Part shown: positions 1-27,183 of the stretch, piece by piece
How positions within the stretch are numbered: position 1 is the stretch's first letter
Layout: every line of letters begins with the position of its first letter
DNA from: an uncultured Acidobacteriota bacterium
Lineage (GTDB): Bacteria; Acidobacteriota; Blastocatellia; RBC074
Length of the DNA stretch: 64,000 bases
Direction of reading: 5' to 3'
Assembly: GCA_963796275.1 (NCBI GenBank)
Contig: CAWCKY010000006.1
Span: 2,208,001 to 2,272,000 of the forward strand
Notes under the pieces: model-generated
Told to the model about the DNA's origin: nothing
Seen by the model: the letters and a program-made list of their open reading frames with translations, nothing else
The model's database searches: none
Position numbers and translations under genes: made by a program

Positions 1-14
1 TTTTAGGAGAAGAT

Positions 15-155: not shown

Positions 156-161
156 GGCTCC

Positions 162-728
162 ATGCGAAGGCAGCAGCATGACGAAGTGTGGAAGGGCCTG
201 GCAGCTGGTGTTGCAGGCGGGCTGGTCGGAGGCTGGGTGATGAACCAGTTTCAGAGCTGGTGGAGCCGGCGGTCGCATGGTATTGAGCGTCCACACGGCG
301 CGCAGTCTCTCCAACAAGGCTCACCGCAACCGGGGCGCGGCGAACTGCAAATCGCTAATGAAGAAGCGAGTGATAACGCAGCGATACGCGCGGCGAGCGT
401 CATCTCCGAACGCTTGTTTCATCGCAGCTTGAAGAAAAATGAGAAGGAGCTGGCTGGCGCTGCAAGCCATTATGCCATGAGCGCGGCTTCAGGTGGGATT
501 TATGGCGCGCTCGCGGAAGTGCAGCCGGTTGCGACCGTTGGGGCTGGTTTGCCATTCGGCGCAGCAGTCTGGGTCATCGCTGACGAATTCGTTGTTCCAG
601 CGCTCGGTCTTTCGAAGAAGCCGGCTGAATATTCGCTTGCGATTCACGCTTACTCCCTCGCTTCACACCTCGTTTTCGGACTCGCGACCGAGATGAGCCG
701 GCGCGCTGTCCGTAGCATACTCAAATAA
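162..728 (+). CDS. DUF1440-like membrane protein
   Basis: KGLAAGVAGGLVGGWVMNQFQ start, HY...GGIYG and HLVFG motifs, several hydrophobic segments. Confidence 0.75.
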   Translation: MRRQQHDEVWKGLAAGVAGGLVGGWVMNQFQSWWSRRSHGIERPHGAQSLQQGSPQPGRGELQIANEEASDNAAIRAASVISERLFHRSLKKNEKELAGAASHYAMSAASGGIYGALAEVQPVATVGAGLPFGAAVWVIADEFVVPALGLSKKPAEYSLAIHAYSLASHLVFGLATEMSRRAVRSILK

Positions 729-732
729 AGTC

Positions 733-1278
733 GTGCGATACACTATAGAATCAGATCAGAGCCGGCTCACGATACATGCGTTTGCCAAAGGAATGCTCTC
801 GGCATTCGGTCACAGCCCGACACTCGCGGTGCGTGGTCTAGCGGGCGAAGTCGACTTTGATGCGGATTCGCCTGGCGAGGCAACTCTCCGGCTGGGGTTC
901 TCGACCGGATCTCTGGTCGTGCTGGATAATATAGGCGAAACAGATCGTCGCGAGATCGAACGGAAGACGCGCGAAGAAGTCCTGGAGATCGCTCATTTCC
1001 CTGAGGTTGTTTACCGAAGTTTGCAGGTATCGGCACGACCAACGGGAGAAGGGGCTTACAAGGTGGGGTTGAACGGCGAGTTGTCGCTGCACGGCGTCAC
1101 GCGCAATCAGGCCATCGAGGCCAGCGTGCTGGTGGCTCACAACTATTTGCACGCGCGCGGCGAATCGACGATACGGCAGAGCGATTATCGCATCGAGCCG
1201 GTCACCGCTCTCGGCGGCGCCATCAAATTGAAGGACGAACTCGTACTCACCTTCGATATAAAAGCATTTAGTCAGTAA
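733..1278 (+). CDS. YceI-family (polyisoprenoid/lipid-binding) protein, no obvious signal peptide
   Basis: GELSLHGVTR motif, QSDYRI..GGAIKLKDEL C-terminus, GTG start. Confidence 0.8.
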   Translation: MRYTIESDQSRLTIHAFAKGMLSAFGHSPTLAVRGLAGEVDFDADSPGEATLRLGFSTGSLVVLDNIGETDRREIERKTREEVLEIAHFPEVVYRSLQVSARPTGEGAYKVGLNGELSLHGVTRNQAIEASVLVAHNYLHARGESTIRQSDYRIEPVTALGGAIKLKDELVLTFDIKAFSQ

Positions 1279-1311
1279 CCTGGGTCGCAGCCGCGCTGCC
1301 AATGAGAGATT

Positions 1312-1710
1312 ATGCACGAATTATCCATAGCTCTGAGCATCATCGAAGGCGCTGAGGAAGAAGCCGCGCGGCACGGCGGCCAGGTCACCGCTGTGCATCT
1401 CCGGCTCGGTCCGCTATCTGGTGTGGTCAAAGATGCACTGCTCTTCTCTTATGACCTGGCTTCCGAAAACACGCCGCTCGCCGGCTCGCGCCTGGTGATC
1501 GAGGAATCGCCGGTCATCGTCTATTGTTCGCAGTGCGCCGCCGAACGCACGATCGCATCGATCCAATCTTTCTGCTGCCCGGTGTGCGGCGAGCCGGCGC
1601 CTGAAGTCGTGCGGGGAAGAGAATTGGAACTGGTAGCTTTGGAACTTAGCTCATTGGAGATGAAGAATGAATGCCAACTCGCGTCAGCCCCGAATACCCC
1701 GTCTGATTGA
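1312..1710 (+). CDS. hypA: Hydrogenase nickel metallochaperone HypA
   Basis: MHELSIA Ni-binding N-terminus, CSQC and CPVC zinc motifs, GRELEL. Confidence 0.95.
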   Translation: MHELSIALSIIEGAEEEAARHGGQVTAVHLRLGPLSGVVKDALLFSYDLASENTPLAGSRLVIEESPVIVYCSQCAAERTIASIQSFCCPVCGEPAPEVVRGRELELVALELSSLEMKNECQLASAPNTPSD

Positions 1711-2440
1711 GGTCAGGCGGAATGTGCTGAAGCAGAACGATCTGCTGGCCCGCGCGCTGCGCGAGCGTTTCAGCGATGCCGGGGTCTTCGTGGTCAGCAT
1801 CGTTTCAAGCCCCGGCTCCGGCAAGACGACCCTGCTGGAAAAAACGCTCGCTCATTTTCGGAGCGAATGCCGCGTCGCCGCGCTCGTCGGCGATCTGGCG
1901 ACAGACAACGACGCCGCGCGGCTCGCTCGCGCGAATGTTCCGGTCAAACAGATTACCACCGGAACAGTTTGTCACCTCGAAGCCGCGATGGTCGAACGCG
2001 CACTCGATGGCTGGAATCTCGCCGACCTCGATTACCTGTTCATCGAAAACGTCGGCAACCTGGTCTGCCCATCGAGTTATGATCTGGGCGAAGACCTGCG
2101 TCTGACCTTGATGTCTGTCACCGAAGGCGAGGATAAGCCGCTCAAGTACCCGACGATCTTCAACACCGCGGACGCGGCAGTCATCACCAAGATCGATCTG
2201 GCCGAGGCGGTCGAGTTTGATGCAAAGGCTGCTTACCGAAGCATTCAATCGGTCAGACCGGGAATGCAGGTTTTCGAGATTTCGGCGAAATCGGGCCGGG
2301 GTATGGATGAATGGCTGCAATATCTGCGATCGCAGCAAGAGGTGAAGCGAAATGAAGAGAGGATGGGATTCGGACGGGATATGAGGGATGAAACGAAACA
2401 TGATTCCACCCTTAATCCGCTTCCCGATAGCGAGACTTGA
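1667..2440 (+). CDS. hypB: Hydrogenase nickel-incorporation GTPase HypB
   Basis: SSPGSGKTT P-loop, CHLEA, ENVGNLVCP, EGEDKPLKYP. Confidence 0.95.
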   Translation: MNANSRQPRIPRLIEVRRNVLKQNDLLARALRERFSDAGVFVVSIVSSPGSGKTTLLEKTLAHFRSECRVAALVGDLATDNDAARLARANVPVKQITTGTVCHLEAAMVERALDGWNLADLDYLFIENVGNLVCPSSYDLGEDLRLTLMSVTEGEDKPLKYPTIFNTADAAVITKIDLAEAVEFDAKAAYRSIQSVRPGMQVFEISAKSGRGMDEWLQYLRSQQEVKRNEERMGFGRDMRDETKHDSTLNPLPDSET

Positions 2441-4779
2441 TGGAGACGCGAACGCAAATACTGGTGCGGGGCATCGTGCAGGGAGTAGGGTTTCGGCCTT
2501 ACGTCTTTTCGCTCGCCCGTCAGCGTGTCCTGAGAGGCAGGGTTTTCAATAATTCATATGGCGTCCTGATCGAGGTCGAAGGCGAGGAGCAAGCTATTGA
2601 GCAGTTCGTTAGCGATCTGATCACGTACCTGCCGCCGCTCGCCGTCATCGAGTCGGTCGAGCGCCGCGACGATTTGATCCCCGCCAACTTCGGAGACTTC
2701 CAAATCATCGAGAGCGAAGTATCTGCTGAGAAGTTCGTGCCGATTCCGGCTGACATCGCTACCTGCGACGACTGCCTGCGAGAATTATTCGACCCGCGCG
2801 ATCGGCGGTTCCGCTATCCGTTCATAAACTGCACCAACTGTGGCCCTCGTTTCACGATCATCCAGGACATCCCGTACGACCGCGCGAGAACGACGATGCG
2901 CGAGTTTGTCATGTGCGGCGAGTGTCGGTCAGAGTATGAAAATCCGCACGACCGCCGCTTTCATGCCGAGCCGATCGCCTGTTCCGCCTGCGGCCCGCAA
3001 CTGCGTTTGACCGACGCGCAGGGCCGGGATGTTATGCCTCTTTCGGACTCAATAGACGGCGTCCTCAGCAATACCCGATGCCTGCTCAGCCAGGGGAGGA
3101 TCATCGCCATCAAAGGACTGGGCGGATATCATCTCGCCTGCGATGCGCTCGATACTGAAGCGGTCGAACGTCTGCGCCGCAAGAAGTATCGAGAGGACAA
3201 GCCATTTGCGCTGATGTGCGGCTCCATCGATCTCATCCGGGAGTATTGCGAAATCACGCAGGAAGAAAAAGAGTTGCTTCTGTCAGCGCACCGCCCCATT
3301 GTTCTGCTCGAGAAGAAATCGAGCGCGAAGATTCCGCGGGCAGTCGCTCCCGGCGTGAAAACGCTCGGCTTCATGCTTCCCTACACGCCGCTGCATCATC
3401 TGCTGCTGAAGGATTTGGACGGCCGCTCGTGATGACTAGCGGGAATATTTCGGATGAGCCGATATGTTATGAGGATGGCGAGGCCAGAGGGCGACTGGGC
3501 GAAATTGCCGATTATCTTCCTGTTGCACAACCGGCGCATTCAGATGCGCGATAGATGATTCGGTCGCGCGCGTGCACGCGGGAAGTGTAACTCAGCTTCG
3601 CCGTTCGCGCGGTTATGCGCCGGTGCCGCTCAAGACATCCGTTCGGCTTCAATCGAGCAGATTCTCGCCTGCGGCGCGGAGCTGAAGAACACTTTCTGTC
3701 TGACGCGCGAGCGACCACGCGTTCATCAGCCATCACATCGGCGATCTGGAGAATCTGGAGACCTTCGCTCATTTACGAACGGCATCGAGCATTTCAAGCG
3801 GCTCTTCGACCTTCAACCGGAAGTCGTCGCTTACGATCTGCATCCCGAATATCTCTCGACGAAATACGCGCTGTCGCTGCGATGAATCGTGCTTAAGATC
3901 GGCGTCCAGCATCATCACGCGCACATCGCGAGTTGCATGGCGGACAACGGTTTCGATGGCGAAGTCATCGGCGTGGCAATGGACGGACTCGGATTCGGCG
4001 AGGATGGCCGGTTCTGGGGCGGCGAGTTCTTCGTCGCCGATTATGCGACTGCCCGGCGCATCGCGCATCTGGCCTACGTGCCGATGCCTGGCGGCGCGAA
4101 AGCGATTCGCGAGCCGTGGCGGATGGCCGCGGTTTACCTTCACCGCGCGCTTGGCGATGAGTTCCTTCATTCTGGATTTGCCATTCGTGCAGCGGCTGAA
4201 TCGGCGGGCCTGGTGCGATGCTTAAACAGATGGCGGCCCGCGGCATCAACAGCCCTGAAACATCGAGCATGGGCAGGCTTTTCGACGCCGTGGCGAGCTT
4301 GCTCGGCGTGAGGGACGCGGTCAACTATGAAGGCCAGGCGGCGATCGAGCTGGAAGCGATGGCCGTCTGTGATGGCGAGCTCGGTTATGAATTTGAGTTC
4401 GATGCGACGCGCGGTATCATCGAGGCCGAACCGGTGATCCGGCAGATCGCAGCCGACCTGCTCGACGGCGTAACGGCTGAGGTGATATCGGCAAGGTTTC
4501 ATCGGGGTGTGGCGAAAAATGATAGAAATCGTAGCGCGTCGAATCAGGGAGCAGCAGGCGGCTGAACCGGGTGGCGCTGTCAGGCGGGGTATTTCAGAAC
4601 ATGTTGTTGCTGGAAATTACCAGTAAATTGCTGAGCGCCGCAGGCTTCGAGGTCTTCACTCATCACCGCGTGCCGCCGGGCGATGGCGGCATTGCTCTCG
4701 GTCAGGCGGCCGTCGCCAACGCCCGTCTCGCGTCCGACAAGCTTCTTTTAGACTTTCGGCTTCCGGAGAGGATCGAATC
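2437..4779 (+). CDS. hypF: Carbamoyltransferase HypF, split by multiple single-base indels
   Basis: [10 protein letters not shown] acylphosphatase domain, CxxC zinc fingers, [38 protein letters not shown] and DGGIALGQ occur in successive frames. The 3' end is approximate because the last frame runs on to 4924. Confidence 0.9.
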
Positions 4780-5046
4780 ATGTGCTTGGCGATACCTGGA
4801 AAGATCGTCGAGATCGTGGACGACGCGAACCGAATCGTTAAAGTCGATGTCGGCGGAGTTCGGCGAAACATCAATGTCGGAATGCTCGACCCGCATGAAG
4901 CGCAGGTCGGCGATTACGTGTTGATTCACGTGGGTTTTGCAATGAGCCGAATTGACGAGCGAGAAGCGGAAGAGACGCTGCGGCTGCTGAGAGAGCTGGG
5001 TTCTTACGAGGAAGAGTTTGATCAGTTCAAGGGCTCGATGAGCTGA
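4780..5046 (+). CDS. hypC: HypC/HupF chaperone
   Basis: MCLAIPG N-terminus, [11 protein letters not shown]. Confidence 0.95.
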
Positions 5047-5058
5047 GGGCTGCGACCG

Positions 5059-5756
5059 ATGACCAGGCCAGTAGACCAATTTTCGCGAGCATTTTATCCG
5101 TTTCTGCACGCTGACGATCGCGCGCCACGGGAATTGATGGAAGACCTGCGCTTATCGCTGCTGGAGAAGGCGCGGGAGAGCGTCGAGGTGAAGAGCCGTT
5201 TCTTTGCCGAGCAACAGGAGACGATTCTGCAGCTCGCGCAGAAGTTGGCGCAGGCTTTTCATCGCGGGCGCAAGCTGCTTCGTATGCGGCAACGGCGGAT
5301 CGGCTACCGACGCGCAGCACATCGCCGTCGAGTTCATGCACCCGATCACGGTGGGCCGCAAAGCGCTGCCGGCGATCTGCCTCAACAACGACATGGCGAT
5401 GGTCACGGCGGTGGCCAACGATGTCGGATTTGCCGATGTCTTCGCGCGCCAGATCATCGCGCTCGGCGGTGAGGGCGACGTGCTGCTCGCCATTTCGACC
5501 AGCGGCAACTCGGAGAACCTGATGCATGCTTTTGCAGACGGCGCGGCGGTTGAAGCTCGTCACCATCGGCTTTGCGGGCGGCGACGGCGGCAGAATGGCT
5601 GCCATGCACGAACGGGGCTTGATCGATTATTGCCTGACTGTGCCGACTTCGAGCATTCACCGCATGCAGGAGACACACGTCACGCTCTATCACATAATGT
5701 GGGACATGGTGCATGAAATATTGCCGCATCGGTTGTTGCTGAGCGACCCGGCATAA
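5059..5756 (+). CDS. SIS-domain GmhA-like phosphosugar isomerase (frameshifted near 5280 and 5530)
   Basis: CGNGGSATDAQH, AVANDVGF, ISTSGNSEN and HRMQETH spread over three frames. Confidence 0.8.
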
Positions 5757-5843
5757 CACTTAATCGCGGTCAGCTTTGTCCGGGAGGGGTGATGACAATC
5801 CGGTAACAGCGCCGTGACATTTCGATTCAGGGAAGGAGGCAAT

Positions 5844-6961
5844 ATGAAGTTCATCGACGAATATCGCGAAGGTGAGATTGCGGTAAGACTGGCAGAGCAG
5901 ATAGCGAAGATGACATCGCAACCGCTCAAGCTGATGGAGGTCTGCGGCGGCCACACGCACACGATCTTCAAGTACGGTATCGAAGATTTGCTGCCGCCCA
6001 ATATCGAGATGATCCATGGCCCGGGCTGCCCGGTCTGCGTGATCCCGCTGGGCCGCGTGGACGATGCGATTTCGATTGCGCTCAGGAGCGACGTCATTTT
6101 TACGACATTCGGCGACATGATGCGCGTGCCCGGATCAAAGACTTCGCTCCTGAAGGCGAAGGCCGAAGGGGCGGATGTGCGGATGGTCTATTCGCCGCTC
6201 GATGCGCTCAAGATCGCGCAACAAAATCCGGCGCGGCAAGTGGTCTTTCTGGCGCTCGGCTTCGAAACGACAGCGCCCTCGACAGCGCTGACTTTGATAC
6301 AGGCGGCGAAGGACGGGGTCGAGAACTTCAGCGTCTTCTGCAATCACATCATGATCGTGCCTGCGCTGAAAGCCATGCTCGATTCGCCCGACCTCAGGCT
6401 CGATGGCTTCGTCGGCCCGGGACACGTAAGCACGGTGATCGGCACGCGTCCCTATGAATTCGTGCCGCAGGAATACGGCAAGCCGCTCGTCGTCTCCGGC
6501 TTCGAGCCGCTCGACGTGCTGCAGTCGGTGTACATGATCGTGAAACAGATCGTCGAAGGCCGCGCGGAAGTCGAAAATCAATACGGGCGGGCAGTCCGGC
6601 GCGAAGGCAACCAGCGGGCGCTGGAGGCGCTCTGCGAGGTATTCGAGCCGCGCGAATATTTCGAGTGGCGCGGCCTCGGCTCGATCGCGCACAGCGGGAT
6701 GAAGCTGCGGGGCGAATACGCCGCCTTCGATGCCGAAGTGAAATATTCGATGCCCGGGTTGCGCGTCGCCGACCCAAAGGCCTGCCAGTGCGGCGAGATT
6801 TTGAAAGGCGTCAAGAAACCGTGGGAGTGCAAAGTCTTCGGCACGGCCTGCACGCCGGAAACGCCCATCGGTTCGTGCATGGTATCGAGCGAAGGCGCGT
6901 GCGCGGCCTATTACAACTTCGGCCGTCTATCGAAGATCGCCCATCGCGTGAGGTTAAAAAT
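5844..6961 (+). CDS. hypD: Hydrogenase formation protein HypD (stop codon not resolved)
   Basis: GGAGG RBS, MEVCGGHTH, GPGCPVC, GFETT, PGHVS, CMVSSEGACAAYY. No stop before hypE. Confidence 0.92.
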
Positions 6962-8060
6962 ATGTCCAATCCCTTCACACCCTCACCTCTCTTTGAGCGC
7001 GTCGAGCGCGTGCGACGGCGGAAGCCTCGAGTCAAAGATGATTTCATCACCCTCTCGCACGGCAGCGGGGGCAAGGCGATGCACGAACTTATTGAGGGCT
7101 TGTTCCTCGACTACTTCTCCAACCCGCTGCTCGCTCCGCTCGAAGACCAGGCCGTGTTCGAGATCGCCAAAGGTAGGCGTCGCTTTCACGACCGATTCAT
7201 ATGTCGTAACGCCGCTCTTCTTTCCCGGCGGCGATATCGGGCGCCTCGCCGTCAGCGGCACGGTTAACGATCTGGCGATGAGCGGCGCTCGCCCGCTATA
7301 TCTTTCCGCCGGCTTCATCCTTGAAGAAGGTTTCCCCGTGATCGACCTCAAGTGCATCCTCGCATCAATGAGCGCAACGGCTGCGGAGGCCGGCGTGCAG
7401 ATAGTCACCGGCGACACGAAGGTCGTGCAGAAAGGCGGCGCCGATAAAATCTTCATCAATACATCAGGCATCGGACTGATCGAACAGCGCGCCGATATCT
7501 CGGTGGCAAGCGCCAAAATCGGAGATAAAGTGATAGTGAGCGGCTCAATCGGAGATCACGGCACTACGATTATGATTGCGCGCGGCGAGTTGGAGCTGGA
7601 GACCGAGATCGAAAGCGACGCTGCGCCTCTCAATTCGCTGGTCGCCGACATGCTCGATGAAGCCGCGCGCATCGATGCCCCCGGCGCGATCCATTGTCTG
7701 CGCGACCCGACGCGCGGCGGCGTGGCGACCACGCTCAATGAAATCGCCCTCAGTTCCGAAGTTTGTCTGCAAATCGAAGAATCACTGCTTCCCGTTCGCG
7801 AAGAGGTCAAGGGCGCATGCGAGATTCTCGGGCTCGATCCGCTTTATGTCGCCAACGAAGGCAAGCTCGTAGCATTGGTCGCGCCAGAGGTGGCGGACGC
7901 GGTATTAGAGCGGATGCGCAATCACCCGTTGGGCCGCGCAGCTCGCATCATCGGAGAGGCGAAAGCGGAACCGCCCGGCATCGTCGTCTTGCGGACGGCT
8001 TTCGGCGGTTCGCGCATCGTAGACTTGCTGGTCGGCGAACAATTGCCGCGCATCTGTTAG
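6962..8060 (+). CDS. hypE: HypE carbamoyl dehydratase (frameshift near 7170)
   Basis: N-terminus MSNPF...ITLSHGSGGKAM lies in the 6665 frame. It continues as FTTDSYVV, GTVNDLAM, RDPTRGG and the C-terminal GEQLPRIC in the 5814 frame. Confidence 0.92.
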
Positions 8061-16400: not shown

Positions 16401-16768
16401 GCGAATTGCGCAATTACCCACTGGTAATCCCTAGTTAATTTGTTAGAATCGCCCTGACTCTGGTATTTCATACTTTATCAACAAGATAAGAAAAAGTGGT
16501 TTCGCAGGAATATTGCTCTGCTTCCAACCTTTGGAATCCGATCTGCCAAAGCCGAACAAGAGCCTATATACGGGCTTCTTATTTAGATACACAGCTCATA
16601 TTTGTTTCTCACCACGATTAGCCTTGTATAATCTCATTTGCTGATGGGAAGCCCGAGATGATCGAATGGATTCGGCCATTATTTAGCCATTGGTCTGTAA
16701 TCAAAATTCAATCTGCGATCTCAAGCCAAATATGTCGGGAAAGGAATCAGGAGCGGAGGATATACAGA

Positions 16769-18772
16769 ATGAAGGTGAGCGATCTGCTAGAAGGCGAACT
16801 ACGGGGAGATGACCTCACCGGGCGAACGCGCATGCCGGAAAGTATTATCGAAGAACTAAGTATCTCGGATGAAAACGGGGTGATTTACATTACCCATCCG
16901 GATAAAGGCGAAAAGTTCGATCGAATGGGCAATGAGTTCGTCAGCGAGCAATTCAGTAAGAGTTTGCGCCCGCCTGAAGAAATGGGACGGATCGGCAAGG
17001 AATTTAGCGAACAATTGCGGATAACGGGATATTGGGAGAGGGAATGCATTGACAAGGAGAAAGATGGCGCCGTAATTGCAAGGTCCGCTCGACTCATCGG
17101 GCTTGAGTATGCTGGTAAAAAGTATTGGGTCCGCGTTCGAGGAGACATTACCGAACGTAAGAAGGACGAAATAGCACAGGCATACCTCGCAGCAATGGTG
17201 GAGTCATCTAACGATGCGATTATCGGTAAAACACTGCAAGGGATCATCACGAGCTGGAATATGGGCGCCGAAAAACTCTTCGGCTACACAGCATCGGAGA
17301 TGTTGGGACAGCCAATTACCGGTTTGATCCGACCTGATGGACGGGAGGAATCGGCCAATCAACTTGAGAGACTGGGACGAGGTGAACGGATTGAGAACTT
17401 TGAGACAGTGAGATTGAGGAAGGATGGAACGCCGGTCGATGTCTATATTACAGTATCACCGATCAATGATAGAAGTGGGCGAATTATCGGAGCGTCCGAA
17501 GTTGCGCGCGAGATCGGCGAGCGCAGGCTGGCCCAGGCGGAACGAGAAGAATTACTGATGAAGGAAGAAGCGGCTCGTGCCGAGGCACAGGCGGAAAATA
17601 ATGCCAAGGACGAAATCATCTCGCTGATCTCGCACGAATTGCGTTCGCCGCTCAATTCGATTCTCGGTTATAACCGCATGCTGCGCTCAAATCCGCATGA
17701 TGCGGAGCAGGTCAGCCAGACTTGCGACGTCATCGAGCGCGGTGCTCGCACGCAACTTCGCCTTCTTGAAGACCTGCTCGATACCTCGCGCATCATCAGC
17801 GGCAAACTGCGGCTCGACCCGCGCCCGACCGATCTCGTTCCGGTGCTCGCCGATGTTCTGGAGCTGATGCGTCCCATGGCAGAGGCGAAAGCCATCGTAC
17901 TGCGCGCGCGATATGACCTGAAACCGGAAATGGTCAATGGTGATCCGGTTCGGCTGCAGCAGGTGGTTGGTAATTTAATTGCAAATGCGATTAAGTTCAC
18001 GCCTGAGGGTGGACGCGTCGGGTTGTGCTTGGAACGCAGCGACGAAGAGATTCGTATCGTCGTCAACGATACGGGCGCAGGCATCGATCCGGAATTTCTT
18101 CCCCGCATCTTCGACCGTTTCAGCCAGGCCGATAGATCCATTTCGCGCTCGCACGGCGGTCTCGGTCTTGGCCTCGCGCTGGTGAAACATCTGGTCGAAA
18201 TGCACGGGGGCGGGGTCGAGGCTGCGAGCGAAGGTGTGGGGCTCGGTTCGACCTTCACTATTAAACTTCCGCCGTCCGTGCCGACCCTTTACTACAGTTT
18301 GGAATTGCCGGCTCTGCGGACTGAAGGCACGATCCCGTTACCTGAAATGGCGACAATTGAAGGCGTAAGCGTGCTGGCAGTAGATGATCAATCGGAGGCG
18401 CGCGAAGCGCTCGCCAGTTTTCTGAGCAACTGCGGCGCAATCGTGACGGCAGTCTCATCCGGCAGCGAGGCTTTGGCGATCCTGGCCGACCCACCGGGGG
18501 GCGATCGCCCTGATGTGCTCATTTGTGACATCGCCATGCCGGGTGAAGACGGCTACGCGGTGATGAAACGCATTCGGATGCTGGAAACAGCGCGCGGACT
18601 CAGAACCCCGCAGCGGATTCCTGCGATAGCTCTCACGGCGATGGCGAGTAGAGAGGACTGGGTGCGTGCGCTCAGCGCAGGATTCAATATGCACGTCGCC
18701 AAGCCAGTTGAACCCGCCGAACTGGTGATGATGATCGCCAGCCTCAAGGGAGAGCAGATCAAGAGAGCATAA
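16769..18772 (+). CDS. Cytoplasmic hybrid histidine kinase (degenerate PAS - PAS - HisKA - HATPase - REC)
   Basis: ESSNDAIIG PAS, SHELRSPL H-box, NAIKFT, DTGAGI, GGLGLGL, CDIAMP receiver. Start uncertain (16658 or 16769). Confidence 0.9.
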   Translation: MKVSDLLEGELRGDDLTGRTRMPESIIEELSISDENGVIYITHPDKGEKFDRMGNEFVSEQFSKSLRPPEEMGRIGKEFSEQLRITGYWERECIDKEKDGAVIARSARLIGLEYAGKKYWVRVRGDITERKKDEIAQAYLAAMVESSNDAIIGKTLQGIITSWNMGAEKLFGYTASEMLGQPITGLIRPDGREESANQLERLGRGERIENFETVRLRKDGTPVDVYITVSPINDRSGRIIGASEVAREIGERRLAQAEREELLMKEEAARAEAQAENNAKDEIISLISHELRSPLNSILGYNRMLRSNPHDAEQVSQTCDVIERGARTQLRLLEDLLDTSRIISGKLRLDPRPTDLVPVLADVLELMRPMAEAKAIVLRARYDLKPEMVNGDPVRLQQVVGNLIANAIKFTPEGGRVGLCLERSDEEIRIVVNDTGAGIDPEFLPRIFDRFSQADRSISRSHGGLGLGLALVKHLVEMHGGGVEAASEGVGLGSTFTIKLPPSVPTLYYSLELPALRTEGTIPLPEMATIEGVSVLAVDDQSEAREALASFLSNCGAIVTAVSSGSEALAILADPPGGDRPDVLICDIAMPGEDGYAVMKRIRMLETARGLRTPQRIPAIALTAMASREDWVRALSAGFNMHVAKPVEPAELVMMIASLKGEQIKRA

Positions 18773-18859
18773 TTCAACCTAAAGTGATGGATCACCGCAA
18801 GAATGCGGTAAGAAAAGAAATTTATCTCAGATATTCCGTTGAAAACAGCGATAAGCTAT

Positions 18860-21268
18860 TTATTCAAATCGTCCGGCAAGACTGGCCACAACGGCGATCA
18901 ACTCATCTGGTTCTACGGGCTTCGGTAGGTGCGATTGAAAGCCTGCTGCAATCGCTTTCAGACAATCTTCTTTCCTGGTATACCCCGAAAGTGCGATAGC
19001 TGGTACGTTACCGCCTTGTTCGGGAGGCAGAGCTCTCACCTTGCGGATAAAGGAGTAACCATCTTCTTTCGGCATACCGATGTCGGAGATGAGGACATCT
19101 GGACTCCATTCGGCCAGGCCTATAAGCGCTTCATTTACGGATGCTACGCCTTTAACCTGAGCTCCATTTTTCTCAAGCATTATTGTGACCAAATTTAGGC
19201 CATCTTCTTCATCATCAACTATTAGCACTCGCAGATCTGCCAGGTTAGAGGCAACCCCTGGTATATCACTCTCGTTCCAGGCTTGAGCGAAATTTGGAGC
19301 AGTTTGATGACCTACCGGCTTTTCCCTCTGATCTTTGGCGGTTGAGAGTGGAAGCCGAACCGTAAAGATTGCTCCCTGTTCATCAGCGCGGGGGCTAGCT
19401 GTAACTGTCCCACCGTGCAGTTCGACGAGATGGCGAACGATTGACAGTCCCAAACCTAATCCACCATGAATGCGGGTGGTGGAGGAATCTTCCTGGCGAA
19501 AGCGGTCGAAGACATAAGGTAAAAACTCCGGCTTTATCCCCGGACCAGTATCAATTACTTTGATTTCTACGTGTGAATCATTATGTCCTGAAAGTATCTG
19601 TACAGAACCTCCTTGCGGGGTAAATTTGATAGCATTGGAGATGAGATTCCAGACAACTTGTTGCAGACGGTTGGCATCTCCAAGGGCGAGATTGACCTCG
19701 TGATCGAGCGATATCTGCAGTCTCACACCTTTGGCTTCCGCCGCCAGACGCATGGAATCAACCGCCGCTTCGATTACCGAAGGGATATACACTTGAGCCA
19801 TTTGGATGCTGAGCTTCCCGGTTATGATGCGAGATACATCAAGGATATCTTCGATAATCCGCTGCTGCGCCTGGGCATTGCTCTCGATGATCTCGGCTGC
19901 CCGCAGAGCGCTCTCCGCATCCAGCATTCCGAGTCGCAGAAGACGCGCCCATCCGAGCATGGCGTGCAACGGAGCGCGCAGTTCATGGGAAACGGTTGCG
20001 AGAAACTCGTCTTTCAGACGATTGGCCGTCTCGGCCTCGGCACGCGCCTTCCGCTCGACCGTATACAAGCGGGCATTGTCGATGGCGACGGCAGCCTGAG
20101 CGGCTAATCCTGCGGCAATCTGCTCCGAACTGTCGGAAAAGATCCCGGGCTCAGAATGGGCGAGGAAGAGCCCACCTAGCACTTTGCCCGAACGGGAAAT
20201 GACAGGTATAGCCAGGTAACTAGTTACCGGCAAATGTTTAGACGGAATCCCGTAAAATGGTGAGTTTTTACCATAACGTGAATCTTTCTTCACGTCATCA
20301 ACGCGCACAATACCTTCGCCGCAAAACGTCGGGTCAAAAATCTCCGTGACTCGCGACAAGGTGAAATGGGCCAGGCGCTCGCGTGGGGCCCCGGAGAACG
20401 TGTGGAGCATTGATGAATCGCCCATTTCGTTCAGAACATTATAGAAGAAGGCGCCGATTTGGGCCCCTGCCAATTCAGTCGCAGCATCAGTGATAGATTG
20501 CACCAACTTTTCCAGGTTGAGCTCGGCTGAGAGCATCCGCCCGGTCTTGTTAACCGTCTCGATGATCTCTCGCTCTTCTTCCAGCTGTCCCTGGATTCTC
20601 GTACGCTCGACGATCTCAGCTTGCAGCTCTGCGTTCGCTCTTGCCAAATCCGAGGTTCGTTGCTGGACTCTTACTTCCAACTCGTCGTGCGCTCTTCTCA
20701 GCGCCTCCTCCGACTCCTTGAGCTGACTGATATCGAACGCTACTCCGTGAACGAACCATGGTCGCCCATCGTCGTGCCGTACCATCTTGGCTTCACAACG
20801 AAACCAAACCACATGTCCATCGCGCGCCAATATTCGATAGACGGATTGCAGCGGCTCGCCTGAAAGGAGCAGACGTGCGGCTTCTTTATTCCAACGTGCT
20901 TTATCCTCGGGATGTATCTGACGATACCAGCGCACCGGATCGTTGAGCCATTCCTGCTGCGTGAAGCCAAGCATCGGCTCGATTTGTGGGTTGATGTAAG
21001 CCTCGCTGATTCCTTTATCGAGGAAAGCCATGAAAACGATGGCGGGAATTTGCTCCAGGAGGGTCCGGTATTTAGCCTCGATGTCTGTCGATGGGGCTGC
21101 TACGACAGTCGCCCTCATTAGCTGCCTGATCGTCTCGCTGTCCGGTTCTAGGATGCTGAAATCAGATGAAGAAAACACTCGCGCAAGCCCGTCAAGAATG
21201 GCGACAGCTTCTGAAGGGCTGACAGGATTGTTATCTTCAAAAGAATTATTCGGCTGTCCGTTTCGCAT
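18860..21268 (-). CDS. Cytoplasmic hybrid histidine kinase (PAS - coiled coil - GAF - HisKA - HATPase - REC)
   Basis: IHPED PAS, SYLAIPV..GGLFL.H GAF, SHELRAPL H-box, NAIKFT, SDIGMP receiver. No TM segments. Confidence 0.92.
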   Translation of the reverse strand: MRNGQPNNSFEDNNPVSPSEAVAILDGLARVFSSSDFSILEPDSETIRQLMRATVVAAPSTDIEAKYRTLLEQIPAIVFMAFLDKGISEAYINPQIEPMLGFTQQEWLNDPVRWYRQIHPEDKARWNKEAARLLLSGEPLQSVYRILARDGHVVWFRCEAKMVRHDDGRPWFVHGVAFDISQLKESEEALRRAHDELEVRVQQRTSDLARANAELQAEIVERTRIQGQLEEEREIIETVNKTGRMLSAELNLEKLVQSITDAATELAGAQIGAFFYNVLNEMGDSSMLHTFSGAPRERLAHFTLSRVTEIFDPTFCGEGIVRVDDVKKDSRYGKNSPFYGIPSKHLPVTSYLAIPVISRSGKVLGGLFLAHSEPGIFSDSSEQIAAGLAAQAAVAIDNARLYTVERKARAEAETANRLKDEFLATVSHELRAPLHAMLGWARLLRLGMLDAESALRAAEIIESNAQAQQRIIEDILDVSRIITGKLSIQMAQVYIPSVIEAAVDSMRLAAEAKGVRLQISLDHEVNLALGDANRLQQVVWNLISNAIKFTPQGGSVQILSGHNDSHVEIKVIDTGPGIKPEFLPYVFDRFRQEDSSTTRIHGGLGLGLSIVRHLVELHGGTVTASPRADEQGAIFTVRLPLSTAKDQREKPVGHQTAPNFAQAWNESDIPGVASNLADLRVLIVDDEEDGLNLVTIMLEKNGAQVKGVASVNEALIGLAEWSPDVLISDIGMPKEDGYSFIRKVRALPPEQGGNVPAIALSGYTRKEDCLKAIAAGFQSHLPKPVEPDELIAVVASLAGRFE

Positions 21269-21307
21269 AATGTCTGTATCGACGCGTGACTTTTATTTAC
21301 TCGACTA

Positions 21308-22341
21308 TTACTCTACATCCTTACGCCGCCATTCGGGTTCCTTATTCAGTGAATCTGCGTAAATCTGCGCAGAGCATGAATTGCCTTACCATAAGTCATG
21401 ACCGCGTGTGATGATAAGAGCGAGCCTGGTGGCTGGTCCATAAACGGCATGAACTTGTCCGGAAATCCGGGCATCGTACAGCCGATGCAGACCCCACCAA
21501 CGTTCGGGCAACCGCCGAGCCCGGACATCCAACCACGTTTCCCCACATTGCATTGGACCACAGGCCCCCAGCATCCCAATTTCACGATGCAGCTGGATGC
21601 CCCATACTCGTCTGCGAAATCCGCCTGCTCGTAGTATCCCCCGCGGTCGCACCCTTCATGGACCGTTTGGCCGAAAAGCCATGTCGGCCGCAGGGCTTCA
21701 TCGAGCGGTATCATCGGAGCACGCCCCGAAAACTGATAGAGCAGATAAAGCAGGGTCTCCGTGAAGTTATCAGGAAGAATCGGGCATCCCGGCACGCATA
21801 CAATCGGAATATCCGCTTTGGATTTCCAACTCCAACCCAGATAGTCCGCCAGCCCCATGCACCCGGTAGGGTTTCCTTCCATCGCGTGGATTCCCCCATA
21901 AGTCGCACACGTTCCAGCCGCCATCACTGCCCAGGCTTTGGACGCCAATCTATCGATCCATTCACAGGTGGTGATGGGTTGACCTGTTTCTTTATCTGCG
22001 CCGAAGCCAGCCCAGTAACCTTCGCTTTTGATCTTTTCGTTGGGGATTGAGCCCTCGATTACCAGGATGAATGGTTCGAGCTTACCCTCATCAGCCAGAT
22101 AAAAGTATTTCATGAAGTCGTTGCCGACTTCATAAGCTAGAACGGGGTTACGGAAATTCACTTTGGGGATTCCCGGTATGGCGCCGAGTACAAAATCTTC
22201 GATACTCGGTTGCGTGGCTGCTGTTAACGCAATCGTATCACCATCGCAGCCGAGACCTGCTGTTATCCAAAGAACATCGATCTCCTCGATCGGTTTGGGG
22301 ACCTGTATCTCTTTGTCCGGGATAACGGTCGTATCCGGCAT
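21308..22341 (-). CDS. hhyS: Group 1h-like [NiFe]-hydrogenase small subunit
   Basis: WITAGLGCDGD, GTCATYGG, PGCP, HEGCDR, LGCWGP..CN, GGCPNVGG.CIGC. No Tat signal. The ORF stops at 21346, but adding one base near 21355 restores ...TQDSLNKEPEWRRKDVE* ending at 21308. Confidence 0.88.
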
Positions 22342-22362
22342 TTTGATTCCTCCTCATACTTA

Positions 22363-22435
22363 CGTTTGGAGTTCCGCGTTTACGCGGTCTTCTGCCTCAC
22401 ATGGTTTCAAACCGCCTGAAGGCGGAACTCCAAAC
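22363..22435. repeat. REP-like hairpin between the hydrogenase large and small subunit genes
   Basis: GTTTGGAGTTCCGC...GCGGAACTCCAAAC terminal arms with two internal palindromes. Confidence 0.85.
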
Positions 22436-22454
22436 TTAGTTTCAAGCGTAACGT

Positions 22455-24258
22455 TCACCATTTTCCACCAAGACCGAACATCGTTGAATGGCGGGTCTCC
22501 AATACCTTGCCATTGCCCAGATACATATGGACGCCGCAAGGCATGCAAGGATCAAAGCTGCGTACCACGCGCATGATGTCGATGCCCTTGAATTTTGCGG
22601 GCTCATTCTCCTCGAAGATCGGCGTACCCTGTACTGCATCCTCATAAGGACCGGGCGTGCCGTGGATATCGCGCGGGCTGGCATTCCACGGCGTCGGAGG
22701 GTACGGATGATAGTTGGCGATCTTACCATCGCGGATAACCATATGGTGCGAAAGCATACCTCGCACCGCTTCGTGGAAACCGCATCCGATCGCCTCCTCC
22801 GGCACGGAAAAATGCGACCAGGTTTTTGTCCTACCGGCATGCACCTCCGCCAGAGCCCGCTCAACAAAGTAGAGAGCTGCCGCCGCTGCATACGCCTGGA
22901 AATAGGTACGAGCGCGGTTGCGCTCAAGCGCATTGCTCCACTTGGGGATCCTCCACTCGAATTCAGCCTCCGGCAACATGGCCGTTTTCGGCAGATTGAT
23001 CTTCACGCTATTACCGGTGGCCTTGATGTATCCGATATCGACCAACCCATTGAGTGCAGTCGCCCAGAGACGGGCTAGCGGTCCGCCGCCGCTGTCCAGC
23101 GCTAGATATTTGCCGGTCACGGTGTCATACCAGCGGGGAGACGTAACCCAGGTATACTTTCCCGCGAAATCGCGCTTCTGAGGTTTCGGAATGGTGACCT
23201 GATTCCATGGATGTAATTGATCAACCTCATTGCCGAGCGGGTCTCTCTCGACAAATTTCTCCGCATTACTCCAATCTTCATAGTAAGAACTTCCGAGCAA
23301 AATGCGAATGCCCAGATTGATCTTGATCAGATCATTGGTGACGATCTTGCCGTCCACTATCACGCTCGGCGTGACATACATAGCTCGCCCCCAATCGGGC
23401 ATATTCTTATATGTGTAATCGCAGACTTCAGGATTATTCCCATGACCCCCAACAACCAAGCAGAATCCGCCGCTCACCGACCCTTTCATATCCTGGCAGA
23501 GCCTCGTAGAAAAAGTTGAAAAGATCGTCATGCAAAGGTACAACTTTCTTGATGAATTCGGTGTACTTCATCAGACGAACCAGGTAGTCGGTGAAAACCT
23601 GGAGGCTGGGTACTGTGCCAACACCCCCCGGATAAAGGGTTGAAGGATGCACGTGACGGCCTTCCATCAGACAGAACATCTCGCGGGCCAAACGGCTCAT
23701 TTGCAGAGCCTCCCGATAAAATTCTCCGCTGAAGGGATTGAGCGCGCGCATAATATCGGCGATGGTTCGATAGCCATCGACCATGGCTCCCGGAGCGCTC
23801 GTTTTCTCGGCCTTCTCCAGTACACCGGGGTTGGTCTCCTTTACCATCTGCTCGCAATAGTCCACACCAGCCAGGTTATCCTGATAGATGTTATGATCGA
23901 ACATGTACTCGGCTGCTTCGCCGAGATTTATTATCCACTCGGCCAACTCGGGAGGCCTCACGCCGAAGGCCATGTTCTGCGCATAAACAGCGCAGGTTGC
24001 GTGATTGTCCCCGCAGATGCCGCAGATGCGGCTGGTGATGAAATGAGCGTCGCGTGGATCTTTGTTCTTCATAAAAACGCTGTACCCACGGAAGATTGAA
24101 GATGTGCTATGACACTCGGCTACCACATTGTTCTTAAAGTCGATCTTGGTATAAATGCCGAGGCTCCCGATGATGCGGGTAATCGGGTCCCAGCTCATCT
24201 CAACTAATCGCTCTCCCTCAGGCATTCCCACTTTTTCCGGTTGTTCTAAGCTGGCCAA
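22455..24258 (-). CDS. hhyL: Group 1h-like [NiFe]-hydrogenase large subunit (one extra base near 23440)
   Basis: WDPITRI, L1 TSRICGICGDNH, HPYPPTPWN, L2 SFDPCMPCGVH. The two ORFs join as LGCWGSW-NNPEVCD if one G is removed from a GGG run. TTG start with GGGGGTGA RBS. Confidence 0.92.
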
Positions 24259-24453
24259 TTGCTCACCCCCATATGTGGTATCTCTCAGTCACGGGTGATA
24301 ACTTAGAAGGAGAGTCGAGGTAAGGTGCGCGTAGGGCCGGGCTTACACGTATCTTCGAGTTCCCACTCCCTTCCTACTATACAAATCGAGATTGAAATGT
24401 ATAGCTCCCGCACTGTCTCCTTTGGGTTCACTCGTGTTTAGTCAATAAATAGT

Positions 24454-24469
24454 TGCAATTGCTATGCCG
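24454..24469 (-). promoter_or_regulatory. Sigma54 (-24/-12) promoter facing hhyL
   Basis: Minus strand CGGCATAGCAATTGCA = GG-N10-GC with TTGCA, about 195 bp upstream of the start. Confidence 0.7.
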
Positions 24470-24858
24470 TTTTTTGCATATTTCGAGCGTATTTAGGTAC
24501 AACTAGCGTAACAAATTAAGCTGCGAGTACATTTCAACGTGCCAGTTCTGATTACAGCTATATTTATTTTCGTTATTGGCGTGATTTGGCTGCGAAGATC
24601 TGAAGTGTTAATGACAGTCTGGCAAATGGCAAATTATTTCAATACAGAGGTGTTCTTATTTCATACTCTTGCAAAATTTGCTAGCGAGTAAAAAACATAG
24701 CGGAGTTAACACATCATACTTTATCGAAAAATTTTTGATCTTAGCATCGGATTTGGGTAATTAGGCGCGCGGTGGAACTGTCTCCGCAGCATGCAAATTA
24801 TGTAAATAGTGCAGACGCCTGTATTTGGAGATATGTGCGGATTTTAAAGCCAGTTCTT

Positions 24859-24874
24859 CGGCATGACAATTGCA
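24859..24874 (+). promoter_or_regulatory. Sigma54 (-24/-12) promoter facing the kinase at 25111
   Basis: CGGCATGACAATTGCA = GG-N10-GC, 14/16 identical to the divergent site. Confidence 0.7.
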
Positions 24875-25110
24875 TCTTTCTCATCATGCAAGGAATCCGT
24901 AACTAAAAATCGCTTCCCCCAATTAAGCGCGCATCGCATTTGCGGCGAGCTCCCACCACCCGATCCATAGTTGGACCCGTTTGATAGGAGAATATGGAAT
25001 AGGCACATGCGAGAAGCCTATTTTTCATTCACAGCATTTTTGAAGGTGAAGCAGACGGACTAACCTAACGTTGTTTCACGCGAATCGCATCCTATCGAAA
25101 ACTATTTGAT

Positions 25111-27183
25111 GTGGAGGACATCATATTTATGCTAGAGGAATTCATTGAATGGAAACGGCCCGAAGACGTACTGGCTAACCTTGCAGCTATCTTGGAATCA
25201 TCGGACGATGCGATTATTGGCAGAACACTGCAAGGGTTCATTATGAGTTGGAATAAGAGCGCCGAGAAGCTCTTCGGCTACGAGGCATCAGAGATCATAG
25301 GGCAACCGGTGAACACATTGGTTCCACCCGACCGGCGCGTTGAAGCGATTGAGATTCTGGAGAGGCTGTATCGAGGCGAGCGAATCGAGCAATTTAAGAC
25401 GGTGCGGTTAAAGAAGGACGGAACTCGGTTTGCTGTCTCCTTAACTCTCTCTCCGATGAAGGATATAGATGGGCGAATGATCGGAGCTTATAAAATCGTG
25501 CGTGATATCAGTGAGCGAAAGAGGTATGACGAAATTCCGGACAGAAGCGACGCGATGTTTGGCAGCCTGCTCGAGAATTTGCCCGCGGCGGTATACACAT
25601 GCGATTCCGATGGATTGATCACTTATTTCAATATACGTGCAGCGCAACTCTGGAGGCGGGCGCCGAAGCTGAACGACCCGGAGGAGCGATTCTGCGGCTC
25701 ATGCCAGCTCTTCTCCGCCGAAGGAGAACCCCTATCGCATGATCGGAGCCTGATGGCGCAGGCGCTCAAAGAAGATAAGGAATTCAATGGATGCGAGATG
25801 ATGATGGGGCGGCCTGATGGATCGCGTCTATCTGCACTCGCTCATATCGTCCCGATCCATGATGATTTCGGCAAAATTCTAGGTGCCGTGAATCTCCTGA
25901 TAGATATTAATGATCGAAAACGCACTGAAATGAAATTGTTGGGGGTGGAGAGGGCAGCCCGCGCCGAAGCAGAAACCGCAAACCGCTCCAAAACAGAATT
26001 CCTCTCGCTCGTATCCTATGAATTACGGTCACGTCTCAACTCAATAATCGGATATAACCGCATACTACGTTCGAACCAGAATGACGATATGGAGACTAGA
26101 CGGGCGTGCGACATCATCGAGCGGAACGCGCGGGCACAGTTGCGTCATGTGGAGGATATCCTCGACACGACTCAAATCGCCAACGGCCAGTTGCGGCTCG
26201 ACAAGCGCCCGACAGACATAGTTTCAATACTCGCAGACACTCTCGACGTGATACGTATGGAGGCCAAGGAAAAAGGCATCGAATTGTTCACGTACTACAG
26301 CCCAAAAAAGGAGGCGGTCATTGGCGATGCCGTCCGGCTGCAGCAGCTGTTCTGGAATCTTCTCTCGAACGCGGTAAAACATACGCCCAGAGGCGGCCGC
26401 ATAGAATTATGGCTGGATCGTAAAGCTGATTTAGTCAACATTATAGTTAAAGATTCAGGCATAGGCATCAAACCGGAAATTTTGCCCCATATCTTCGAAC
26501 GTTCCGGGCGCACCGATCCATCGAATACGAACGAGCGCGGCGGTCTCGGTATCGGACTGGCGCTCGTGAAAACCCTGGTCGAGATGCACGGTGGGTCAAT
26601 CAAGGCTGCGAGCGGAGGCCCGGGGCGTGGATCTACCTTCACCGTTACGCTTCCATTGGCAGATGAGAAAGGATTCTATTCACCTAATCTGCCAGCCATC
26701 AAGACTGAAGAAGCGATCCAGCCCGAGTCAGTGTTACAGCTGTACGACCGTGCGATGATTGAAGGTGCGCGCGTATTGGTAGTAGACGATCAGGAAGAGG
26801 CACGCGTAACCGTTGCCGATTTTCTGAGAAAATCCGGCGCAATCGTAACTGCTGTCTCCTCAGGCAACGACGCTTTATCGATTCTGGACGACCCACCGGG
26901 CGGCGAGCGACCGGAAGTGCTCATATGCGATATTGCCATGCCGGATATAGATGGTTACACGGTTCTAAAGCGTGTGCGTGAACTCGAAGCAAAGCGCGGC
27001 CTCAGTGCGTCGCAGGAGATTCCGGCGGTTGCTCTCACAGGGATGGCTCAGATTGAAGATCGTATGCGCGCTCTCAGTGCGGGTTTCCGGATGCACCTGA
27101 CCAAGCCGGTTGAGCCAACCGAGCTGATGGTCGTGATCGCTAACCTGATGGGTGCTCATATCGAGGGCACGCTCTGCAATTAA
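25111..27183 (+). CDS. Hybrid histidine-kinase-like protein (PAS-PAS-HisKA*-HATPase-REC) lacking the phospho-acceptor His
   Basis: H-box reads VSYELRSRL. N, G1 and G2 boxes and the receiver CDIAMP are intact. Paralogous to 16769-18772. Confidence 0.88.
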   Translation: MEDIIFMLEEFIEWKRPEDVLANLAAILESSDDAIIGRTLQGFIMSWNKSAEKLFGYEASEIIGQPVNTLVPPDRRVEAIEILERLYRGERIEQFKTVRLKKDGTRFAVSLTLSPMKDIDGRMIGAYKIVRDISERKRYDEIPDRSDAMFGSLLENLPAAVYTCDSDGLITYFNIRAAQLWRRAPKLNDPEERFCGSCQLFSAEGEPLSHDRSLMAQALKEDKEFNGCEMMMGRPDGSRLSALAHIVPIHDDFGKILGAVNLLIDINDRKRTEMKLLGVERAARAEAETANRSKTEFLSLVSYELRSRLNSIIGYNRILRSNQNDDMETRRACDIIERNARAQLRHVEDILDTTQIANGQLRLDKRPTDIVSILADTLDVIRMEAKEKGIELFTYYSPKKEAVIGDAVRLQQLFWNLLSNAVKHTPRGGRIELWLDRKADLVNIIVKDSGIGIKPEILPHIFERSGRTDPSNTNERGGLGIGLALVKTLVEMHGGSIKAASGGPGRGSTFTVTLPLADEKGFYSPNLPAIKTEEAIQPESVLQLYDRAMIEGARVLVVDDQEEARVTVADFLRKSGAIVTAVSSGNDALSILDDPPGGERPEVLICDIAMPDIDGYTVLKRVRELEAKRGLSASQEIPAVALTGMAQIEDRMRALSAGFRMHLTKPVEPTELMVVIANLMGAHIEGTLCN

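Follow-up and report, generated by a model that had tools for sequence, protein, structure and literature searches.

The window, by which we mean the whole 64,000-nucleotide stretch analysed here (contig CAWCKY010000006.1 of an uncultured Acidobacteriota bacterium, positions 2,208,001 to 2,272,000), encodes on its minus strand the large subunit (HhyL) and the small one (HhyS) of a NiFe hydrogenase, followed by a soluble hybrid histidine kinase. From open reading frames (ORFs) and Pfam domains, hhyL is placed at 24258..22455 and represents a rare orphan lineage of group 1h large-subunit paralogs. The small-subunit gene belongs to a paralogous clade that we designate S(a), and lies at 22341..21308 when corrected with sequencing reads (22341..21346 as assembled). 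The kinase (21268..18860) has 802 amino acids and contains PAS_3 (residues 90-177), GAF (250-397), HisKA (419-482), HATPase_c (530-642) and REC (681-794) domains identified with Pfam. Its residues 1-200 (window 20669-21268), composed of an N-terminal extension and the PAS_3 domain, make up an N-module that is conserved beside S(a). This anatomy, with RICGICGDNH and DPCMPCGVH as large-subunit motifs, hhyS in second place and a PAS-GAF-HK-REC gene in third, bears out what an original prediction, made from the sequence of the window, had described.

Both window subunits are group 1h-type, as judged by their match to a solved structure and by their identity to the canonical copy in the same genome. 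The best solved match is 5AA5, the actinobacterial-type hydrogenase HofK/HofG of Ralstonia eutropha, both for HhyL (HofG; 568 bits, E 6.8e-170, with the next match at 99 bits and 2.3e-27) and for HhyS (HofK; 554 bits, E 1.4e-165, with the next match at 143 bits and 1.4e-40). This wide margin supports the group 1h-like identity that had been proposed. Group 1h is the former group 5, with Hhy of Mycobacterium smegmatis as an example, and its large-subunit signatures are about TSRICGICGDNH (L1) and SFDPCLPCGVH (L2). The window HhyL has TSRICGICGDNH and SFDPCMPCGVH, with the L1 and L2 cysteines intact and a single Leu-to-Met change in L2, where the canonical copy has the Leu form. It is 82% identical (492/598) to the canonical HhyL of the genome, and the window HhyS is 70% identical (231/328) to the canonical HhyS. 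The enzyme of 5AA5 reportedly has a small subunit with no twin-arginine translocation (Tat) signal, three clusters, and an Asp replacing the second proximal-cluster Cys. The N-terminus of the window HhyS has no RRxF motif, the sequence GLGCDGD occurs at the proximal cluster, and all Cys/His ligand columns are kept. The pair thus resembles group 1h enzymes such as Hhy and HofK/HofG in its best solved match, its L1/L2 motifs, the lack of a twin-arginine signal and GCDGD at the proximal cluster. It differs from them in having Met for Leu in L2, in a small subunit that belongs to S(a) and has a changed C-terminus, and in its gene order.

Large-subunit genes occur at four loci of the genome (9.46 Mb, 7 contigs), namely the window hhyL, a canonical hhyL and two aberrant copies on a contig designated C4. 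The canonical hhyS-hhyL pair (C6:2200837-2203711) is located 4-7 kb before window position 1, upstream of which a respiratory hhySL had indeed been predicted, and it is followed by accessory ORFs and then by the hyp genes of the window. It has the small-then-large order of group 1h, inside the accessory/hyp cluster, whereas the window pair has the large subunit first and is separated from the accessory genes and, by about 13 kb, from the hyp genes.

The unit that is conserved in other genomes is the small subunit with the kinase (S-kinase), not L-S-kinase. An alignment scan of a species genome collection with the kinase N-module confirmed at least 581 loci, of which the best 80 were analysed. 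These 80 overlap with loci from our other genome searches (L075 and L148, for instance, are one and the same contig), and counts among them are not independent observations, given that related genomes share synteny by descent. Going by their record titles, members of the Acidobacteriota account for 73 of the 80, including Edaphobacter aggregans DSM 19364, Acidobacteriaceae KBS 96 and Pyrinomonas. S(a) occurs directly upstream of the kinase at 76 of these loci, with a median of 32.5 nt between the S(a) stop codon and the first ATG in the kinase frame, and the window N-module is 51-75% identical to the N-modules of the set. Within the PAS module, His119, Cys158 and His174 are invariant or almost so. 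At 56 loci the kinase is followed by a NarL-type regulator, 11 have a hybrid transmitter like that of the window kinase, and the other 13, several of them at contig ends, have neither. Canonical hhyS is found downstream at 52 loci and hhyL, a few kb off, at 50.

The same arrangement is seen in relatives, where a second small-subunit gene, 77-80% identical to the window hhyS product, precedes a kinase whose first ~200 residues are 48-65% identical to those of the window kinase. In these relatives the kinase is followed in turn by a REC-GerE (NarL-type) regulator and the canonical hhyS-hhyL. In a phylum sample of 401 genomes we found 13 strong N-module matches in 12 genomes, including the one studied here (E <=3e-53, with the next best at 6e-33), and the small subunit is directly upstream of the kinase at 12 of the 14 loci examined. 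The N-module stays with S(a) while the transmitter changes between HisKA_3 with a NarL-type regulator (56 of the best 80 loci) and a GAF-HisKA-REC hybrid (11). Because the N-module remains beside S(a) through these swaps, and because the unit mostly lies directly before hhySL, the comparison points to S(a) and the PAS domain as the putative input device of a two-component system that would control the high-affinity hydrogenase. That a paralog of the 1h small subunit is widely linked to a PAS kinase is real and apparently undescribed.

The kinase-linked small subunits, S(a), are separated from those that precede hhyL, S(b), at a support of 100 in a FastTree phylogeny computed with no bootstrap (153 rows, high-scoring segment pairs of fewer than 280 residues left out, and the small-subunit-like protein of contig C4 as outgroup). 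The window HhyS falls inside S(a), and its nearest sequence is that of locus L083, at 87% identity. The Cys/His ligand columns of the Fe–S clusters are 100% conserved in both S(a) and S(b). At position 182, where S(b) has Asn, 78% of S(a) have an extra Cys; this site lies four residues ahead of Cys186 of the proximal cluster. In the 46 genomes with both copies, S(a) sequences share a mean pairwise identity of 81% versus 85% for S(b), and in these genomes the segment at residues 301-330 has a conservation of 0.92 in S(a) versus 0.75 in S(b). The two clades have the same consensus residue at only 17 of the 30 positions of this segment, and the canonical C-terminal tail (..ELTTGYRPRSY) is changed or lost in most S(a). 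HoxB requires its C-terminal peptide to bind HoxJ, and by analogy segment 301-330 of S(a) is the best candidate for a kinase contact. A predicted complex of the window HhyS, which the assembly frameshift had deprived of its true C-terminal 15 residues (68 rows), and the kinase N-module (68 rows) had a score of 0.00 in both runs, a result that speaks neither for binding nor against it.

The assembly is indel-noisy, with many single-base indels, and ORF calls throughout the genome need care. As assembled, the hhyS ORF ends in ..RRFTQIH, and another frame goes on with ..SLNKEPEWRRKDVE, matching ..NKEPKWRH.. in the canonical copy. Read-derived contigs of one sequencing run (X1) provided four pieces identical to the window, with an extra G after window 21352 in one, and a contig of a second run (X2), from a close relative, has the same one-base insertion. 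The extra base in the read-derived contigs of both runs shows that the hhyS frameshift is an assembly error. With the true stop at 21310-21308, the gap to the kinase ATG is 39 nt (77 nt as assembled), the distance given in the original prediction. That prediction was silent on a second break, in hhyL, which is split by a one-base frameshift (a surplus base in the G-run at ~23438-23441). One frame ends in ..LLGCWGSW and the next resumes with NNPEVCDY.., where the canonical copy has ..LLGCWGAFNDPEVCDY..; this frameshift, too, is a probable assembly error. In the hyp cluster, hypF contains at least four frame changes, and out-of-frame stretches join hypD to hypE.

The large subunit has a different distribution from that of S(a). 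Where 2 kb or more of sequence precedes S(a), as at 72 loci, no large-subunit match lies upstream of it (0/72), and no small subunit was found downstream of a 1h large subunit at any of the 58 metagenome loci with at least 1.2 kb of downstream sequence (0/58). The nearest relative, L083, has no large-subunit match within its 1216 nt upstream of S(a). Because the L-S-kinase synteny is not conserved, the unit is not a whole second 1h paralog turned sensor, as had been suggested, but an old paralog unit of S(a) and kinase with a separately evolving orphan hhyL beside it. A check proposed with the original prediction was whether L-S-kinase synteny is conserved and forms a clade of its own; the S(a) clade and its link to the kinase are found, and among the loci compared the upstream large subunit occurs in the window genome alone.

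The window HhyL falls within the canonical HhyL clade of its own family (support 96), on a branch of 0.24 versus a median of 0.044, and pairs at a support of 99 with a metagenome copy (L163, 88% identity). An orphan copy in G432, the source genome of L083 (L244:7794-9590, G432:C230), shows 87% identity to the window HhyL. The orphan gene in G432 has no adjoining small subunit and is situated between two ORFs identified by eye as transposase-like. In G432, the nearest genome, the lineage of the window HhyL thus recurs together with an S(a)-hybrid kinase, to which it is unlinked. Just upstream of this orphan is a short remnant that resembles the receiver C-terminus of a hybrid kinase. The motif DPCMPCGVH is common to the window HhyL, L163 and the G432 copy, and occurs in 1 of the 57 genome-set sequences and 1 of the 68 metagenome-set sequences. 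Of the 307 positions at which the other 56 sequences do not vary, the window HhyL retains 301, its ratio of nonsynonymous to synonymous substitution rates (dN/dS) is ~0.06, with synonymous sites saturated, and it has 23 residues after the L2 His versus ~20 in the canonical copy. Judged by its sequence, it is an old, maintained orphan lineage under purifying selection. We also considered that it might be a recent duplicate of the canonical hhyL of the genome and rejected this origin, given that the proportion of synonymous differences (pS) is saturated at 0.77 and that the gene pairs with copies from other sources.

Two further hybrid kinases flank the unit, as originally described. One, with PAS-HisKA-HATPase-REC architecture, is encoded on the plus strand at 16658..18772, convergent with the unit; the start first assigned to it, 16769, is an internal Met, and the ORF begins at 16658. 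The other, with PAS-PAS-HisKA-HATPase-REC architecture, is encoded on the plus strand at 25111..27183 and is divergent from hhyL. Their HK-REC parts are ~41% identical to that of the central kinase. Between the flanking kinases there is no further ORF of at least 150 amino acids, other than ORFs antisense to named genes, and ORF and Pfam analyses of this interval identified no electron-transfer, membrane-anchor or protease gene, in line with the earlier description. A scan of 18500-25300 returned 5 promoter-like sequences versus 6.9 expected and 7 terminator-like sequences versus 6.4 expected, none of them in either spacer. The 113-nt spacer between hhyL and hhyS contains a palindromic repeat that resembles repetitive extragenic palindromic (REP) or miniature inverted-repeat transposable (MITE) elements (22363..22436, strand not assigned). 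This REP-like repeat is ~75 nt long, a 14-mer within it occurs 168 times in the genome versus 0.07 expected, with 104 hairpin-like pairs, and in soil and plant metagenome contigs the repeat shows repeat-type joints and very high depth. The hyp genes (hypA, hypB, hypF, hypC and hypD-hypE), for which Pfam identified HypA, HypB, the N-terminal part of HypF, HypD and HypE, are on the plus strand at 1312..8060, at the distance of about 13 kb originally described, and continue the canonical hhySL cluster that begins upstream of the window. The G+C content is 0.47-0.54 in the L-S-kinase region (18001-26000) versus 0.57-0.61 in the canonical hydrogenase/hyp region (1-8000), and this lower value fits a separate history of the unit.

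We hypothesize that these genes encode a 1h-derived, kinase-coupled sensory module in which S(a), joined to a large subunit of the 1h type, tells the kinase when its clusters are reduced in dependence on H2, and we assign this reading a probability of about 0.45 from comparative sequence analysis. The module, widespread in Acidobacteriota, would have two parts, S(a) with its three Fe–S clusters and the downstream cytoplasmic kinase, with the N-terminal extension and PAS_3 domain of the latter as the conserved partner of S(a). In most genomes S(a) would pair with the single HhyL, and in the window genome with the dedicated orphan. Oxidation of H2 would reduce the Fe–S chain of S(a), and the PAS module docked to it would receive this state, probably by way of the C-terminal segment 301-330 specific to S(a). 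The activity of the kinase would change in response, with output in most genomes via the adjacent NarL-type regulator. Because this regulator directly precedes hhySL, expression of the high-affinity hydrogenase is the likely target. In the window the same input module is fused to a GAF-HisKA-REC transmitter, and the output would be a phosphorelay. More tentatively, sensing may operate by subunit swapping, in which one HhyL pairs either with the respiratory small subunit or with S(a), whose Fe–S chain would end on the PAS domain. Acidobacteriota and a few other soil lineages could in this way read H2 availability through their own high-affinity enzyme, and the window, by adding a dedicated catalytic subunit, would have a complete 1h-derived sensor convergent with group 2b.

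Several observations weigh against the proposed sensory module. The count of 76 among 80 loci overstates the independent support, since kin share synteny by descent. The adjacency of large and small subunit is peculiar to the window genome among the loci compared and, as the spacer carries a REP-like mobile repeat, may have come about by a chance rearrangement. The C-terminal extension kept by the window HhyL counts against a sensory role, as such an extension is not known from established sensors. None of the read-derived contigs spans the hhyL frameshift (~23440) or the L-S junction, and if the frameshift is real the dedicated large subunit is dead in this genome. A profile search of the PDB with the PAS module returned generic PAS domains only (best E 3.9e-11), and in it no solved PAS relative with a known cofactor was close to the S(a)-linked module. 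In the chromosome-level genome G429 (L089) an S(a)-hybrid kinase is present, and searches with PF00374 and with the N-terminal half of the window HhyL found no large subunit; no HypD was found there either. A large subunit was likewise not found in G434, G437 and G446, genomes of uncertain completeness. Because of these genomes, S(a) and its kinase may work without a hydrogenase.

An alternative built on this last point is that S(a) is a stand-alone Fe–S redox or O2 sensor, whose clusters would signal directly to the PAS domain with no need for a large subunit, and that the window hhyL was placed beside it by rearrangement. G429, with neither a large subunit nor HypD found, and the three further genomes speak for this alternative, although genomes that seem to lack a large subunit may be incomplete or relics. 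Similarly, the absence of a large subunit upstream of S(a) at all 72 loci, the REP-like mobile repeat that fills the L-S spacer, and the unlinked G432 gene with its transposase-like flanks (by eye) fit this alternative, yet hhyL is a few kb downstream at 50 of the best 80 loci, and 18 of the 22 genomes whose S(a) locus had no large subunit have a 1h-type large subunit elsewhere. In G431 (L139:6940-11667) the order is S(a)-kinase-hhyL, and S(a) is the sole 1h-type small subunit found, beside a large subunit. S(a) is also conserved over its full length nearly as well as S(b) (81% versus 85%), including the N-terminal domain, which touches the large subunit in solved enzymes. A further point in favour of stand-alone sensing is the cluster on contig C4, where a PAS kinase is preceded by a small-subunit-like protein with two clusters and by two large-subunit-like proteins that lack Ni–Fe cysteines. 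On balance we consider a stand-alone sensor less likely than the kinase-coupled module proposed above, but a serious alternative to it. As side observations, the unpublished genome G450 is among the 18 with a large subunit elsewhere, and the large subunit of G431 diverges more than any other in the set, being changed at 17 positions that are otherwise invariant.

The hydrogenase-derived cluster on contig C4 (G000:C4:197828-205562, L243:1828-9562) lies outside the window. Its small-subunit-like protein, of 281 amino acids, keeps the proximal and medial cluster motifs and is missing the distal-cluster region. Two 1h-like large-subunit paralogs, with 5AA5 as best solved match, have lost the L1 cysteines (RTSGRASGAH and RICGWGAGAN), and both end in ..RSFDP followed by TAA, just before the L2 cysteines. 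The same end point is seen in G432, at position 501 of the 508 in the Pfam model. Selenocysteine read-through beyond the ..SFDP end was considered and rejected, the stop being TAA in both genes. An 886-amino-acid kinase with three PAS domains is encoded next. Homologs of the C4-type small subunit (36-43% identity) were found in 12 of the 41 relatives searched.

A second alternative, which we regard as unlikely, is that the pair constitutes another catalytic, energy-conserving 1h isoenzyme, with S(a) as an alternative electron-transfer subunit and the kinase as an ordinary neighbour that senses, e.g., carbon or energy status. In favour of such an enzyme are the metal ligands, intact in both subunits, the strong purifying selection, the 70-82% identity of the subunits to the canonical enzyme, and the C-terminal extension of the window HhyL, which is typical of matured catalytic subunits. 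However, the window pair has no acceptor, anchor or protease gene, and the ..ELTTGYRPRSY tail is changed or lost in most S(a). G431, in which S(a) is apparently the only small subunit available to the 1h large subunit, is a case in favour, but most genomes have one large subunit per two small subunits, and the kinase and regulator separate S(a) from the large subunit. The rise of hhyL and hhyS in carbon-limited stationary phase (reported in Giguere et al. 2020, PMC8027828) is a further point in favour. A plain neighbour, though, would not hold one PAS module to S(a) through swaps of transmitter and output.

Decay of the unit, with real frameshifts in hhyL and the hyp genes and no functional hydrogenase or sensor made, is highly improbable: hhyL is split in the assembly with no read-derived contig across the site, hypF has at least four frame changes and the branch of the window HhyL is long (0.24 versus a median of 0.044), but the sole frameshift that could be tested with reads, at the C-terminus of hhyS, is an assembly error, the break in hhyL consists of one surplus base within a G-run, as is typical of long-read error, and the breaks occur in otherwise well-conserved frames with no substitution decay (301/307 invariant positions, dN/dS ~0.06).

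The known H2 sensors that act through kinases belong to group 2b, i.e. HoxBC-HoxJ-HoxA of Ralstonia eutropha and HupUV-HupT-HupR of Rhodobacter capsulatus. The L2 His is the end of the large subunit in these sensors, which are not known to have a C-terminal extension or a protease. The module that we propose is like them in combining a cytoplasmic NiFe component that has no export signal with a soluble PAS kinase, near the hydrogenase genes that it would control. The window kinase begins 39 nt past the corrected hhyS stop and has its PAS_3 domain at residues 90-177, and the distinctive C-terminus of the small subunit is the candidate kinase contact. Unlike group 2b, the window subunits match 5AA5 and nest among acidobacterial 1h sequences, in trees that contain no named 2b sequence. 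Other differences are that only the small subunit is dedicated in nearly all genomes, that the window large subunit keeps its C-terminal extension, and that the regulator is NarL/LuxR-type (REC and GerE), or the output a hybrid phosphorelay, instead of NtrC-type. The gene order is S-kinase-regulator-S-L, or L-S-kinase in the window. By analogy, the unit could work like the group 2b sensors and is not a member of group 2b.

HydDB also includes putative sensory hydrogenases, group 2c, that are linked to diguanylate cyclases or PAS proteins. As in that group, a hydrogenase-derived module is encoded with a signalling protein and its function is read from synteny only. The hydrogenase group is another one, both subunits are dedicated in group 2c, and the output domain differs.

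The extra small-subunit gene is already in print. For Acidobacteriaceae KBS 83, Edaphobacter aggregans and Pyrinomonas methylaliphatogenes, Giguere et al. 2020 (PMC8027828) mention a further hhyS copy that lies ca. 3,600 bp upstream, for which they cite Greening et al. 2015, and report that its transcript was detected in KBS 83 and not in E. aggregans. One large subunit per strain is described in Eichorst et al. 2018 (PMC5900883). This extra copy and S(a) are the same gene family; the loci of E. aggregans (L160) and Pyrinomonas (L148) have the order S(a)-kinase-regulator-S(b)-L, with the spacing printed for the extra copy. We found no function assigned to the copy in Giguere et al. 2020 (PMC8027828), whose main text does not contain the word 'kinase'. 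Full-text searches turned up no literature that connects the extra hhyS copy with a kinase, although the supplementary information (SI-2) of PMC8027828, where the copy is described, may already mention neighbouring regulator genes. The link to a kinase is thus apparently undescribed, and the window version differs from the printed copy in that its kinase is a hybrid and that it has a large subunit of its own.

The chief biological sink for atmospheric H2 is driven by group 1h hydrogenases, which also help dominant soil bacteria to survive. We know of little, outside mycobacteria, on how their expression is controlled. The position of S(a) and its kinase directly before hhySL offers a concrete regulatory circuit that is genetically testable in cultured strains such as Edaphobacter aggregans, KBS 83 and Pyrinomonas. 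If H2 is sensed, kinase-coupled hydrogenase sensors would have arisen a second time, independently, and the new kind may be tuned to trace H2; one catalytic subunit would then serve both respiratory and sensory small subunits. That soil Acidobacteria widely encode a spare small subunit beside a signalling kinase suggests a hydrogen or redox sensor that has so far escaped description. Among the loci compared, only the window genome adds its own catalytic subunit beside S(a), and if the sensory reading is true, this orphan large subunit would make it a natural source for reconstituting a self-contained L:S:kinase complex.

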